A stretch of DNA of 64,000 bases from Prorocentrum cordatum (lineage: Eukaryota), in the NCBI GenBank assembly GCA_963575745.1, contig CAUYUJ010000001.1, forward strand, positions 1,054,001 to 1,118,000, in the 5' to 3' direction. Below, piece by piece: positions 16,364 to 34,954 of the stretch. The translations under genes were made by a program, and so were the position numbers. Under the pieces are notes generated by a model. It searched no databases, was not told where the DNA came from, and worked only from the letters and a program-made list of their open reading frames with translations. The number at the start of each line of letters is the position of its first letter. Position 1 is the stretch's first letter.

Positions 16364-16399
16364 GCGGGGCTCGGGATGTGAGTTGCGTCCTGCCCTATG

Positions 16400-16995
16400 G
16401 CGACGGCGCCGATGACGGCGACGACGACGACGACGACGGCGGCGGCGACGACGACGGCGGCGATGGCGATGGCGCTGAGAATGAGGATGTGGATGGGAAT
16501 GGTGATGGTGAGGATCATGGTTATGGTTATGAAGGTGGCAGTGGTGGTGATGGTGGTCATGAGGATGGTGGTGATAGTGATGGTGGTACTAATGGTGTTG
16601 ATTAACATAGAGTGTCCATCATGACGAGTATGAGGATGATAATGATGATGTTGGTGCTGATGATGATGATGATGCTGATGCTGATGATGGTGGTTGTGAT
16701 GATGATGATGCTGCTGATGATGATGATGATGACGACGGTTATGGTGATGGAGATTATGATGACGATGGCGATTACGATAACGGTGACGAGAGCAATGACC
16801 ATGATGATCAGAATGGTGTTGATGATGATGGTGGTGATGATGATGATATAGATGATGATGATGATGATGATGATGATGATGATGATGATGATGATGATGA
16901 TGATGATGATGCTGATGCTGATGTTGATGCTGATGCTGATGCTGATGCTGATGATGATGATGATGATGATGATGCTGATGATGACGATGATGATC
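16400..16995. repeat. (GAC)/(GAT)n microsatellite
   Basis: Direct reading. Confidence 0.95.
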
Positions 16996-18898
16996 CGCGT
17001 ATGTGTCCCTTCTCTTTGTCGTCGTCGTCGTTTTTATACCCCTCCCTCTCCTGATGCCGTCACATGTTTGGCCGCGCGGCGTTGATAGTGGTGCATTGTC
17101 TCATTTCGAATGTCTGCGTGGGGTGCTTTCGTCTCAGGTCAATAGCTTCGCAGTGCTCGATGTGTCTCCAGTTGCCGTGATGCGTGCGTCGCTGAGGACT
17201 GGTGGGTGGCGTGTTCCGTGAAATGAGAATAATGGTGGTGGTGTTGATGAGGATGGCGTTGAAGATGATCGTGACGGTGATATTGATGCTGATATTATTG
17301 TTGGCAATACCGATCATCTCTATCACCATCACCATCATATGTCGCCGCGCAGTCTGTTCCGACGCGCGGCCTTGCGTCTTAGGGAGGGCGCCTCGGCTAC
17401 CAGGGCAAACTCCGCCTCGGACACAGAGTTTGCGGTGAGTTTGCCGCGGTGGCGGCATGGGATTGAGAGTTCTGCGGCCAGCGTCCTGAAAAAAGTCTGC
17501 CTCCGGAAGTCTGGGCGTATCAGGCGGATGGCATAGTTGAGCCACATATTTGTGCACGGGGCCCTGCGTACACACTCCGTCAGAATGCCGGACAGCTTAG
17601 GCGTAAGCCTTTTCAGTCGGCGTTGGGCCAGAAAAGCATACAAGCAACCTTCGATGTGCGTGATCGCCAGTGTTCTGCTAGGGGCTCGCTGGGGAGCACC
17701 CCTCCTTCCATGTAAGCAAACTTGCCAGAATCTAGGTTGGAACACGCTCTCGGCGGACCGCAGTCCGCTGCAAGCCCGTGACCTTTCATCGGCGAGATGA
17801 AGCACAGCAACGCAGCAACTCTTCCACCTTCGAGGCTTCTCTGGACGAGTGCCGGGACCGGCTGCTCTTGTTGTTCCAAGTGTCATCTGGCTTCGAGATG
17901 CCTCTTCCTCCTGACAAACAGTCGTTGCCACGCTTGGTGGAGCGTCTTGCTGGCTCGAAGAAACGAGAGGCGGAGGAGACTCCGAGGAGAACTTGCGATG
18001 GGAGTGCCCATGGCAGGGTCAGGGTGGTGGGGGCTTGCCCTCATCATCATCCTCAAAATCCGACTGTGTCGCTAGCATCGGCGCCGTGGTGTTTCTGCAC
18101 CCAGGCCCGACGACTGCATCGCTGGACGGAGGAGGAGGAGGAGGAGAAGGGCGAGGGGAGAGGGGGCGGCGTGTCTGGCTAAGCAGCCGCCGTCCCTGCA
18201 CAGGAGTTTCGACTACCGGCCCGCAGGGAAGCCCTCGGAGTGCCGGCGGGGACGCCATGCCCGCGACCAGCCCCATCACCCAGGGACGGCGGCAAGCAAG
18301 CGAGCAACCTCCAGGACTCCAGAAGTGGTTACCTGCCGGCCGCCAGGCAGAGCGACTCCAGACCCTGAGGGCGTACAGACATTGAGCCTGCCAGCGCAAG
18401 GAGGGCAGGCATCTGAGGGCGATGCGCTGCCCGAGCCGGGCGTCATGATTCTTCATCCCCAGAGGTCTCGACCCGTTCCCTGGAACGGGCATTAGATCCT
18501 GATTCGTTTTTTGTCGGGGCCCTGCGAGAGCTCCGAGAGGCCGGAAATGAAACAAAACGTTCCGCCGCGGTCTCTTCACGTCGCGAGGGGGTTTGGGAGC
18601 AGCGGTGGTGCCGTGAGGCCTCGGCCAGCAGGGGGCGCCCGTGCGGCATTGGCTTGAGGTTGGCACGCCCGCAATGGGTGTGGGAAAAAAGGGCACGATG
18701 CCCAACAGCAGAAGCTGCCCCAAACCGACAGCGGCCGCTGGCGAGCAGCGACACGCCTCAGGTGCACAACGCCCGCGGCGACGCAGGCAGCGAATACGGT
18801 TCAAGATGGGCAGGAACTGGTGTTGGTCTTCGCCCCCATTCTTTCCGTACCCATTTCGCTCGTGCCGAGGAGGGGCCGCGGCGCGCGCGATTTCGGTG

Positions 18899-19012
18899 AT
18901 GCCGGGCGAGGGGGGCCGTGCGCTGCCGCCGCTGCTGCTGTGCGGCTCGGCCAAGCTGCTGCTCTCCGCCGTGGTGTCGTCCGCGTACACCGTGTTCCCG
19001 CTGCACGCGGAG
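18899..19012 (+). CDS. MFS transporter exon 1 (MPGEGG...YTVFPLHAE), TM1
   Basis: ATG, hydrophobic helix, GA donor in phase with the next exon. Confidence 0.7.
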
Positions 19013-20139
19013 GATCGGCGAGTCCCAAGCGAAAAGAAAAAGAGGTTATGCGTTTCGCCCCCTGGGGGCTCTTCGGGCCAGACTGCCTATGGTGCATCAT
19101 CGAACAAATTTCATCGACGATGGGACCAGAGGCGGAGCGGAGAGATGCAGTGCACAGTGGGGTGTTCATGGAGAAGGGGTATCTTCCCAGATCATAGAAA
19201 CTATTGATTCGGCTTGCGTCGGGGGTTCCACTTTTTGTAGGAGGAGGAGGGAAACATCGACGACGACGACGACGACAACAAAGACAAAGACATCGACGGC
19301 GACTACGACGGCGACGGCGAGGGCGAGGGCGAGCGCGATGGGGAGGAGGAGGGGAGGAGAGGAGGGGAAGGAAGAGGAGGGATGATGGAGGAGGAGCGAG
19401 GAGGAAAGAACAGACCGAACAGACGATGATGAAGATAATGGGGGGGAGTCTTCGTAGAGACACCCCACGACTGATCACGAGCGGCCCCAACATGGCCCCA
19501 AGGGGGTCGCCCAAAGGAGTCAACATCAAGTCACACGAATACAGTAACGTAGCAGGAAACGTCAGCTGGCACCGAAAGGCATTGAGAGGCCTCTAGGAGA
19601 ACCCCGAAACGCCCCCAAGAGTGCCCATTGAGGCCAAGCAGGAGCCCTCAGAGGGCCCCAAGGGGGCCCCCAAGAGAGTCAAAATGCGGCAGCGCAAAGA
19701 GGAAATGAAGGAACGACCAAACAGTGGGAAGACTACTATATGCCTTGCAGTGCGATAGCATCTATGCTGGGGCGCTATGCTTGGCCATGCTATGCAACGC
19801 TTCGCACTGACATTCGCGATGGCATGTGATGCAATGCAAGGTGCCGTGCTGTGCCGTACTGTGATGTGCGACGGGTTGGTTGTGTTGCAATCTTGTTGTG
19901 TAGTGACAGTGGTAATGTGGTACAAATGTATGCGCTACGCATCGGCACACACACACACACTTGACACATGTATAAACTCCTGTATGCTGGCCCTACGGTC
20001 ACGATTGCCACCAGCCCCTGTACTACTACCACAACGTGTTGCTACTGATTACTGCTGGAGCGGTTGTTGCTACAATTGCAGTCGATACTACTTCGCAGAC
20101 GACGGACACAACAACGAACACTACGAATATCACTAGCAA

Positions 20140-33815: not shown

Positions 33816-33931
33816 GCCTGGGGCCGTTCGCGCTCGCGGCGCTGCGCTGGGACGCCGCCATGGCGGCCGCGGCGGCCGCGGCCGCGCTCCTGCTGGCTGC
33901 GGCTGCGGCGCAGTCTGCGTCGGCGCGCTAG
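33816..33931 (+). CDS. MFS transporter terminal exon (LGPFALAALRWDAAM...SAR*)
   Basis: End of TM11 plus hydrophobic TM12 and TAG stop; AG|G acceptor. Confidence 0.7.
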
Positions 33932-34251
33932 CGCCCCGGTCGTGTGCAGGTGCCCCCTGGCCGAGCGGCAGCACGAGGGCCCCACAGAGTGCCCGACCGG
34001 CGTCCTCTCTCCTGCTCCGGGGGAACAGCGCTAGCGAGGGGGGGGGGGTAGGCTCTTGGGGAGGCACTGTGCTCGGAGTTCTGGCCTTCTCGTGGGTCCC
34101 CATGGGTTTTTCCGCCTCGGGATGCTCCCCAGCAGCTGCGCCTCGCCGCGAGGCGTCCCCGGGTGCCCAGATCGTCCCAGCGGGCCGCCAGCGACCCGAG
34201 CTATCACCCGAAACCCAGCCAGCGAGGATCACTGGCTCGGGGGGGCATGCG

Positions 34252-34410
34252 TTAAGTCGGGCCTGTCCCTCTACAGGAGGAATATTCAAAAGTAGGCAAA
34301 ACATGGTCTGGGGATAATGTTTTAGCATGTTCTGAATATGTTTGAACATTTCCTGTGTATTTGTCATTTTTCATCCAACATCCCCCTATAGGGGGACATG
34401 CCCGACCTAA
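34252..34410. mobile_element. hAT-like MITE with perfect 8-bp TSD, nested in a TCA-family element (~34020-34545)
   Basis: ggcatgcg|ttaagtcggg ... cccgacctaa|ggcatgcg. Confidence 0.85.
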
Positions 34411-34954
34411 GGCATGCGTCGACCCCAAACAGCACATTCGTCGCCGATGGGAGCCTGTCAGCCAGACCCGCCCAGGAGTGTGCAGTTTCGCTGCCTGGGG
34501 CCCACCGCCGACTTCTCGGCGATGTGTCGCCGACTCCGTCCTCCCTCTCCTTCTCCGCCTCCTGGCCCCCTCTCCCCATCCTCCCTCCCCCGTCCCCCAG
34601 TCCTCCCTCACTTCGGCGGCGCGCAGAGCGGGGGTGGGGCCAGGGGGGGCGGCCCTCTGCGAAGAACGCTGGGGGGGGGGGGCCTCTCGGAGGCGCCCGA
34701 TCCCTTCTGAGGAGCCCCCCTGCCTTCTTGGAAGGCCGCCCCCGTCAATCCCCCCCCGTCCTACACGGTGTGCGAGGGTGGAGGGGGAAGGGGGGGCGGC
34801 GGGATCCCGATTCGCCGATCCACTGTCGAGTTTTCGATCTGATGGAGGGCTGGCCTGACCACCCCAACGCTGCGTGCCGCCAACTCCCTTCAACCAGGGG
34901 ATCCCTCGCTTTGTCCGCTCGGGCCCGCCCCGTGCGCGCAGACCCGGCGGGGAG

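Follow-up and report, generated by a model that had tools for sequence, protein, structure and literature searches.

Genes lying within an intron of another gene are, in the classical animal cases, mostly antisense to their host and contain few introns. For the dinoflagellate Amphidinium carterae it has been reported that 25.2% of genes are nested in introns, including a six-exon gene that a splicing-factor gene carries in one of its introns, and that about 10% of the nested genes are nested further (PMC12584245). Their mean expression is 2.07 times that of the host, with ratios of 0.07 to 14 among highly expressed pairs, a spread that the authors took as a sign that adjacent regions are transcribed differentially (PMC12584245). 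Polarella glacialis has 6.5-8.4% of its genes nested in introns, as validated with full-length transcripts (PMC7245778). Dinoflagellate genes are mostly unidirectional (PMC11453091; PMC7245778), their mRNAs receive a trans-spliced 22-nt leader (PMC12584245) and polycistronic expression appears to be rare, according to a 2024 review (PMC11453091). Here we describe a 64,000-nt stretch of the genome of the red-tide alga Prorocentrum cordatum (assembly GCA_963575745.1, contig CAUYUJ010000001.1, forward strand 1,054,001 to 1,118,000; hereafter the window, in which positions are counted from its first letter), where a multi-exon gene for an MFS-type transporter appears to be nested, on the same strand, in the fifth intron of an ArfGAP-PDZ gene.

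In the P. cordatum genome the GC content is 59.7%, and genes and introns average 24.5 kb and 4,709 bp, respectively (PMC10666404). Its splice donors are GC (51.4%), GT (24.7%) and GA (23.8%), and 79.7% of its acceptors are AGG (Table 2 of PMC10666404). The window agrees with these figures in its GC content (~60% overall, 43-69% per 2-kb bin) and in combining GC, GT and GA donors with AG/G acceptors, where the slash marks the splice point. The word 'nested' has no occurrence in the main text of the genome paper and is absent from the main text of the 2024 review; the present locus, and perhaps nesting in P. cordatum generally, seems to be undescribed in the main text of PMC10666404.

Pfam was run on plus-strand stop-to-stop open reading frames (ORFs), 150 of them before position 22000 and 146 in 22000-43000; a third batch covered 150 of 156 ORFs, the last six, from 63196 on, being left out. 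The GC content of third codon positions (GC3) was used as coding signal, since it is ~0.9 in coding stretches as against a median of 0.61 and a 95th percentile of 0.88 in random frames.

The ArfGAP-PDZ host and its fifth intron

Pieces of the Pfam ArfGap domain (PF01412) occur in three of the 150 plus-strand ORFs before 22000, namely at ~391-450 (profile 3-22, E 0.0096), 8291-8383 (22-52, E 2.2e-9) and 9535-9708 (44-101, E 5.1e-5), and in none of the 146 ORFs of 22000-43000. A further piece, 14619-14690, was exposed by a GC3-based scan, and the ORF pieces 14616-14726, 16192-16377 and 34943-35098 have no Pfam match when run singly. A search with host exon 2 yielded P0002, a 662-residue ArfGAP-PDZ relative from a 2,243-nt Logan contig, with an ArfGap domain at residues 4-127 (profile 3-115, E 1e-31) and two PDZ domains. 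Since its 1,986 coding nt fill the contig, P0002 is intron-free, and the contig is most likely a transcript. Compared with the window by tblastn, P0002 gives collinear plus-strand matches at 391-447, 8282-8362, 9535-9612, 14619-14690 and 34928-35020, continued by 39152-39235 (E 3.6), 42423-42458 (E 19), 44868-44972 (E 7e-4) and 47134-47265 (E 7e-6); within 16.4-34.9 kb it gives only noise, with E of at least 0.97. The host features are the following.

391..450, plus strand: host exon 1, first CxxC of the zinc finger (Pfam profile 3-22; tblastn to P0002 4-22 at 68% identity; no 5' boundary found)
8294..8366, plus strand: host exon 2, rest of the zinc finger and HR(K)LG motif (Pfam 37.9 bits against a cut-off of 28.7; tblastn 70% identity)
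9545..9618, plus strand: host exon 3, THISFVQSATLDTW... (tblastn E 6e-6; the preceding intron ends in CG)
14619..14690, plus strand: host exon 4, VGNARAAEMYEACLPRGWSRPRAQ, followed by a GA donor (tblastn 71% identity, E 2e-5)
16328..16363, plus strand: host micro-exon 5, 36 nt or 12 codons, ending ...DPEAA (matches P0002 98-109; acceptor AG/G, donor GC)
16364..34954, plus strand: host intron 5, 18,591 nt, GC...AG/G, holding the nested gene and several microsatellite arrays
34955..35020, plus strand: host exon 6, AHLERFVRAKYEQKLFARGDLR, end of the ArfGAP domain, starting AHLERF (tblastn E 3e-5; GC3 0.91; 3' boundary approximate)
~39152-39235, 42423-42458, 44868-44972 and 47134-47265, plus strand: downstream host exons with the first PDZ (collinear tblastn to P0002 138-244; boundaries approximate)

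The first six exons encode one ArfGAP domain. Their spliced product of 127 residues aligns to P0002 4-131 over 128 columns, 86 of them identical (67%), with one gap and a score of 486; the domain is complete (profile ~3-115) and unduplicated. The zinc finger C-x2-C-x16-C-x2-C, for which the junction 450/8294 is needed, is present exactly and is followed by CAGVHRK with its HR motif. The micro-exon went unreported by tblastn; it was first spotted by eye and then confirmed in the spliced alignment, and corresponds to 12 residues that P0002 carries between its matches to exons 4 and 6. That the exons on the two sides of intron 5 belong to one gene is supported by their collinearity and exact spacing in comparison with the intron-free P0002.

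Among the 53 in-frame, stop-free pairs of GT, GC or GA donors with AG acceptors around both ends of the intron, 16363/34955 ranks first. A stronger-looking GT donor at 16378, joined to an acceptor at 34942, was rejected as it inserts nine residues and scores 467 instead of 486, and so was skipping of the micro-exon (14690 joined to 34942 or 34955), which deletes 12 residues relative to P0002 and scores 434. The terminal motif FVRAKY occurs once in the window, at 34970. An earlier reading of the locus, made from the letters and their ORFs (hereafter the sequence-only reading), had called the exons up to 16363 and at 34955 non-redundant and phase-compatible, and the alignment and the rank of the junction bear this out; its statement that the intron 16364-34954 splits the ArfGAP domain is correct as well, but five introns do so and not just this one.

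Intron 5 is ~4 times as long as the mean intron of the species, and its GC donor belongs to the majority donor class of P. cordatum (PMC10666404). The same paper searched for introners as introns with inverted repeats (8-20 nt) and direct repeats (3-5 nt) close to their two ends; in intron 5 no terminal inverted repeat reaches 8 nt within ~30-40 nt of the ends, the longest being 6 nt.

As a whole the host spans at least 391-47265, that is at least 47 kb with at least 10 exons, whose GC3 is 0.83-1.0. Introns 1 to 5 measure 7,843, 1,178, 5,000, 1,637 and 18,591 nt, and those further downstream roughly 2-4 kb. A host start codon was not found within the window. The ORF scan gave a weak PDZ match at ~47158-47235. 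Run as a single-exon query, 47086-47271 matches PDZ_6 with an E of 7e-5 and 22.9 bits, the curated cut-off being 27. Searches with the tail exon 34943-35098 returned no match, either among homologues or among solved structures, and the best solved structure for exon 4 is the SMAP1-like ArfGAP 2iqj_A (E 0.19). SMAP-type ArfGAPs (2iqj_A, 2crr_A) and P0002 share with the host the zinc-finger spacing, the HR motif, GN...YEA.LP and F.RAKYE. The ~12 extra residues of the micro-exon, before the last helix, are carried by the host and P0002, whereas by eye the SMAP chains are without them. P0002 also has the ArfGAP-then-PDZ order of the host.

The transporter gene within the intron

Inside intron 5 lies a co-oriented multi-exon transporter gene with an ATG at 18899 and exons supported to at least 32480. 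One of its exons, 28197-28388 (64 residues), is 100% identical to part of P0001, a 359-residue NCBI protein entered as 'unnamed protein product [Prorocentrum cordatum]', which maps exactly to 18899-19012, 25537-25653, 26117-26221, 28200-28385, 30513-30614, 31472-31678, 31846-31905, 32148-32207 and 32440-32565, where it ends. Two relatives, P0003 and P0004, 59-61% identical (E 1e-13), came from an exhaustive HMMER search for which the high-GC3 frame at 31455-31715 was the query. These map to 18932-19012, 26177-26218 joined to 28197-28301, 31476-31703, 32147-32209 and 32436-32495, and at 31.5 kb and 32.15 kb they back a frame unlike that of P0001, as well as longer exons 2 and 3. Judged by these relatives, the C-terminal half of P0001 is probably mis-framed. 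P0001 leaves out parts of exons 2 and 3 (25654-25716 and 26060-26116).

A nine-exon model has 389 open codons without a stop, with 117 identities in 253 columns to P0003 and 117 in 322 columns to P0004. Six of its eight donors are GC, one is GT and one GA; seven of the eight acceptors are AG/G. The exons are listed below, with candidates for the 3' end of the gene.

18899..19012, plus strand: nested exon 1, ATG and first transmembrane segment (TM1) (identical to P0001 1-38; 59% identity to P0004 9-35; GC3 0.95)
25537..25716, plus strand: nested exon 2 (P0001 covers 25537-25653; Pfam MFS_1 profile 35-80, E 0.017)
26060..26218, plus strand: nested exon 3 (MFS_1 profile 83-116, E 0.024; P0003 and P0004 cross the junction to exon 4)
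28197..28381, plus strand: nested exon 4, TM5-TM6 (100% to P0001; 61% to P0003, E 2e-9; 3' end at 28381, 28385 or 28388)
30513..30588, plus strand: nested exon 5, acidic central loop, boundaries and frame tentative (high-GC3 frame; weak likeness to the P0003 loop; frame of P0001 differs)
31467..31693, plus strand: nested exon 6, start of the C-terminal half, 5' boundary tentative (P0003 and P0004 at 55-58% identity, E 5e-17 and 2e-17)
31845..31968, plus strand: nested exon 7 (P0001 covers 31846-31905; spliced alignment to P0003)
32147..32206, plus strand: nested exon 8 (57% identity to P0003 192-212)
32439..32480, plus strand: nested exon 9, 3' end approximate (65% identity to P0003 211-230)
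32910-32975, 33154-33192 and 33815-33928, plus strand: candidate last exons, followed by a candidate stop at 33929-33931 (GC3 0.92-1.0 against a random median of 0.61)

The gene thus has at least nine exons and probably about 12 in all. A stop at 33929-33931, to which GC3 points, is plausible, and both candidate ends (32565 in P0001 and 33931) precede 34955. Of the ATG-to-stop MFS gene of about ten exons that the sequence-only reading had placed at 18899-33931, the ATG and nine exons are upheld by homologues, and for the stop there is GC3 alone. An in-frame ATG at 18806 would lengthen the ORF by 31 codons upstream of 18899. Just before it stands an 8-nt string one mismatch away from what we take to be the 3' end of the spliced leader, a likeness estimated to be not beyond chance. 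The first intron of the gene contains a (CTA)n array (20286-21005, ~240 units) which faces an inverted (AGT)n complement (21507-22105, ~171 units); their arms of ~443 nt, 86% complementary and ~500 nt apart, make this a potential giant hairpin or an assembly-prone spot.

We assign the product, by comparison of sequences and at family level only, to the MFS-type transporters. Two consecutive exons match consecutive ranges (35-80 and 83-116) of the Pfam profile MFS_1 (PF07690), and the best solved structure for P0003 is the MFS transporter SLC18B1 (9d7u_A, E 5.3e-6), which resembles it over TM5-TM6, although the likeness is weak and partial. In a protein atlas the ten feature-based rows listed were all MFS_1 clusters (scores 0.97-0.98), a pattern that, according to the tool itself, one third of shuffled proteins also give. 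MFS proteins have 12 TM helices in two halves; a simple hydropathy scan of the 389-residue partial model flagged ten windows, some of them overlapping. P0004 has no Pfam match, and a metagenome scan with P0003 returned one uninformative locus at 31% identity. The UniRef label of P0001, 'Solute carrier family 40', would suggest SLC40/ferroportin but has no backing from Pfam, where P0001 (E up to 1), P0003 and P0004 have no ferroportin match.

All genes detected in the window (host, nested gene and pentatricopeptide-repeat (PPR) genes) are on the plus strand, and the minus-strand signals are lower-scoring shadows of plus-strand exons only. The PPR coding sequences lie downstream of the host at 54192-55337 (PPR_2, E 8.7e-38) and 63464-64000 (E 2.5e-16). 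Tri- and dinucleotide arrays are abundant throughout, and a dispersed element of ~100-180 nt has copies, 76-82% identical, at 27839-28014, 32263-32410, 35282-35363 and 44068-44259, in introns of both genes. Self-blastn of the window gave 21 repeat pairs of at least 80 nt, none overlapping an exon of either gene; Rfam gave no match over the whole window. Host intron 6 contains ~2.3 kb of GT-rich degenerate repeats (35850-38200), with a GC skew of 0.75 and an AT skew of -0.84 in the 36-38 kb bin. Host intron 1 contains a plus-strand ORF of 686 codons (3149-5206) with strong coding-type GC3 in 3665-3841 and 4058-4477; reverse transcriptase motifs were noted by eye, but Pfam gave nothing and this identification was dropped; the ORF may belong to a further nested gene or to a degenerate retroelement. 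On the minus strand of the same intron, 6942-6962 matches over 21 nt and with three mismatches what we take to be the dinoflagellate spliced leader, which none of 100 shuffles did. Preceded by CAG, followed by a GTAAG-like string and on the strand opposite to all genes found, it may have been left by the leader of a retroposed mRNA or be what remains of a gene for the spliced-leader RNA.

Weighing the nested arrangement

On these comparisons we consider it probable that the window holds a genuine nested-gene locus of the kind typical of dinoflagellates, with an MFS-type gene in the fifth intron of an ArfGAP-PDZ host. Host collinearity with P0002 and the matches to P0001, P0003 and P0004 support what the sequence-only reading had proposed on this point, namely a multi-exon MFS-type gene nested on the same strand in an 18.6-kb ArfGAP intron. 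The orientation, which had been presented as a surprise, is the expected one, because dinoflagellate genes run dominantly one way and nesting is common in A. carterae and P. glacialis; it would follow from one-directional gene blocks and need no special mechanism. The host mRNA would be made by ordinary cis-splicing of 16363 to 34955, the nested gene being discarded with the intron. For this the splicing machinery must pass over at least nine exons, with splice-site types equal to those of the host. The transporter would have an mRNA of its own, beginning with the dinoflagellate spliced leader, joined at an acceptor in front of ATG 18899, and ending where the RNA is cleaved beyond the stop codon; it would derive from a transcript with its own transcription start or arise at the cost of the host transcript that carries it. 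Unless the guest is separately transcribed, each primary transcript would give only one of the two mRNAs, because trans-splicing inside the intron would sever the host precursor. The literature leans towards independent expression of host and guest.

Several observations weigh against this reading. Of 24 sequencing runs listed, each with a share of 0.12 or less, none is recorded as RNA. The junction 8366/9545, which P0002 requires, combines a GT donor with an intron end of CG instead of AG, and the nearest AG upstream of the exon 3 acceptor is 141 nt away. Searches of public proteins found none with a 100% identical copy of host exon 2 or of host exon 6, for which reason the host gene seems unannotated, and P0002, at only 67% identity, could be a paralogue. 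As for the guest, all MFS_1 scores (14.5 and 14.0 bits for exons 2 and 3, 17.9 for P0001 and 26.5, E 3.9e-6, for P0003) are below the curated 33.4 bits, and none of P0001, P0003 and P0004 reaches the candidate last exons 32910-33931. Some exons of the locus have a GC3 of 0.83-0.86, under the random-frame 95th percentile. The fit of the nine-exon model to the splice rule is also partly circular, because several boundaries were chosen by the GT/GC/GA...AG rule.

Part of this would be explained if the host were a decaying ArfGAP-PDZ duplicate, a pseudogene, in which case only the transporter would be functional, the nesting would be a relic and there would be nothing to skip. The CG end of intron 2 favours decay, as the best of 37 canonical alternatives for the junction of exons 2 and 3 drops conserved residues and scores 446 as against 486. 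So does the fact that searches with exons 2 and 6 found no protein model from P. cordatum, though one exists for the nested gene, that the second PDZ of P0002 (581-652) has no tblastn counterpart in the window, and that gene duplication is extensive in P. cordatum (PMC10666404). However, none of the six ArfGAP exons is out of phase or broken by a stop, the HR motif and all four cysteines of the zinc finger are kept, the identity to P0002 is interrupted by one gap only, the four PDZ pieces are in order and exon GC3 is 0.83-1.0; a missing annotation is explicable too, since long-intron genes are easily missed (PMC12584245). A pseudogene host is therefore regarded as unlikely. Intron 2 (8367-9544) is flanked on both sides by TCGG, and close to its ends (within 40 nt) lies an inverted repeat of 8 nt, a length reached by no other host intron. 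Its CG end may reflect a base error, a polymorphism, non-canonical splicing or a disabling mutation, and the intron itself may be an introner-type insertion.

Similarly unlikely, in our judgement, is that one long host pre-mRNA serves as precursor of both mRNAs, the transporter mRNA being freed from it by spliced-leader trans-splicing and polyadenylation. The two genes are co-oriented and dinoflagellate mRNAs do carry a trans-spliced leader (PMC12584245), and nested exons 1 to 3 each have a length divisible by three, which makes chimeric in-frame products conceivable. But the nested-to-host ratios of A. carterae were read as differential transcription (PMC12584245), polycistronic expression is apparently rare (PMC11453091), and trans-splicing in the intron would cut the host transcript, so that a single molecule cannot yield both products. 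It is doubtful, and put forward here as a speculation, that host and nested gene form one transcription unit in which the transporter mRNA is cut from the ArfGAP-PDZ pre-mRNA by trans-splicing within the intron and the choice between cis- and trans-splicing sets the ratio of a membrane-traffic regulator to a transporter; if so, the in-phase nested exons 2 and 3 could act as cassette exons in chimeric host transcripts.

An assembly artefact, by which misjoins put the transporter between host exons 5 and 6, is very improbable. Long microsatellites abound, including (CTA)n at 20286-21005 and its inverted complement at 21507-22020, and the published assembly was scaffolded with transcripts (PMC10666404). 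Yet the 64 kb contain no N and no duplicated exon, and by logic two misjoins are needed, one on each side, as a single internal one would break the collinearity. It is hardly credible that the host is really two genes, with the ArfGAP gene truncated before 18.9 kb and the PDZ gene beginning at 34955: although the link between the two sides is made by sequence comparison, the exon at 34955 starts within the domain, its ORF offers no in-frame ATG further upstream, and with it the ArfGAP domain is complete at the exact residue spacing of P0002.

Comparison with described nested genes

As a nested-gene locus, the window adds one more case to an arrangement on record for thousands of dinoflagellate genes and is of little weight as a discovery. 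It has some practical value with regard to the public gene set, which appears to be without the host and gives the second half of the transporter a frame that lacks support from its relatives, and which shows how long introns, GC and GA donors and nesting defeat annotation in dinoflagellate genomes. With one host, one multi-exon guest and identical splice-site types, it could also be a clean test case for how cis-splicing of a host is kept apart from the maturation of a co-oriented guest.

The nested genes of A. carterae resemble the present one in their short exons and long introns and in that whole genes, one of six exons among them, lie within a host intron (PMC12584245). They concern another species and other loci and come with transcript mapping and expression ratios, whereas the P. 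cordatum locus is described from its sequence. In the P. glacialis example many light-harvesting genes are nested in each host (PMC7245778); here one transporter lies in one intron. The classical nested genes of animals likewise place a whole gene in an intron, but in the P. cordatum pair both genes are on the same strand and rich in introns, and their mRNAs are expected to begin with a trans-spliced leader.

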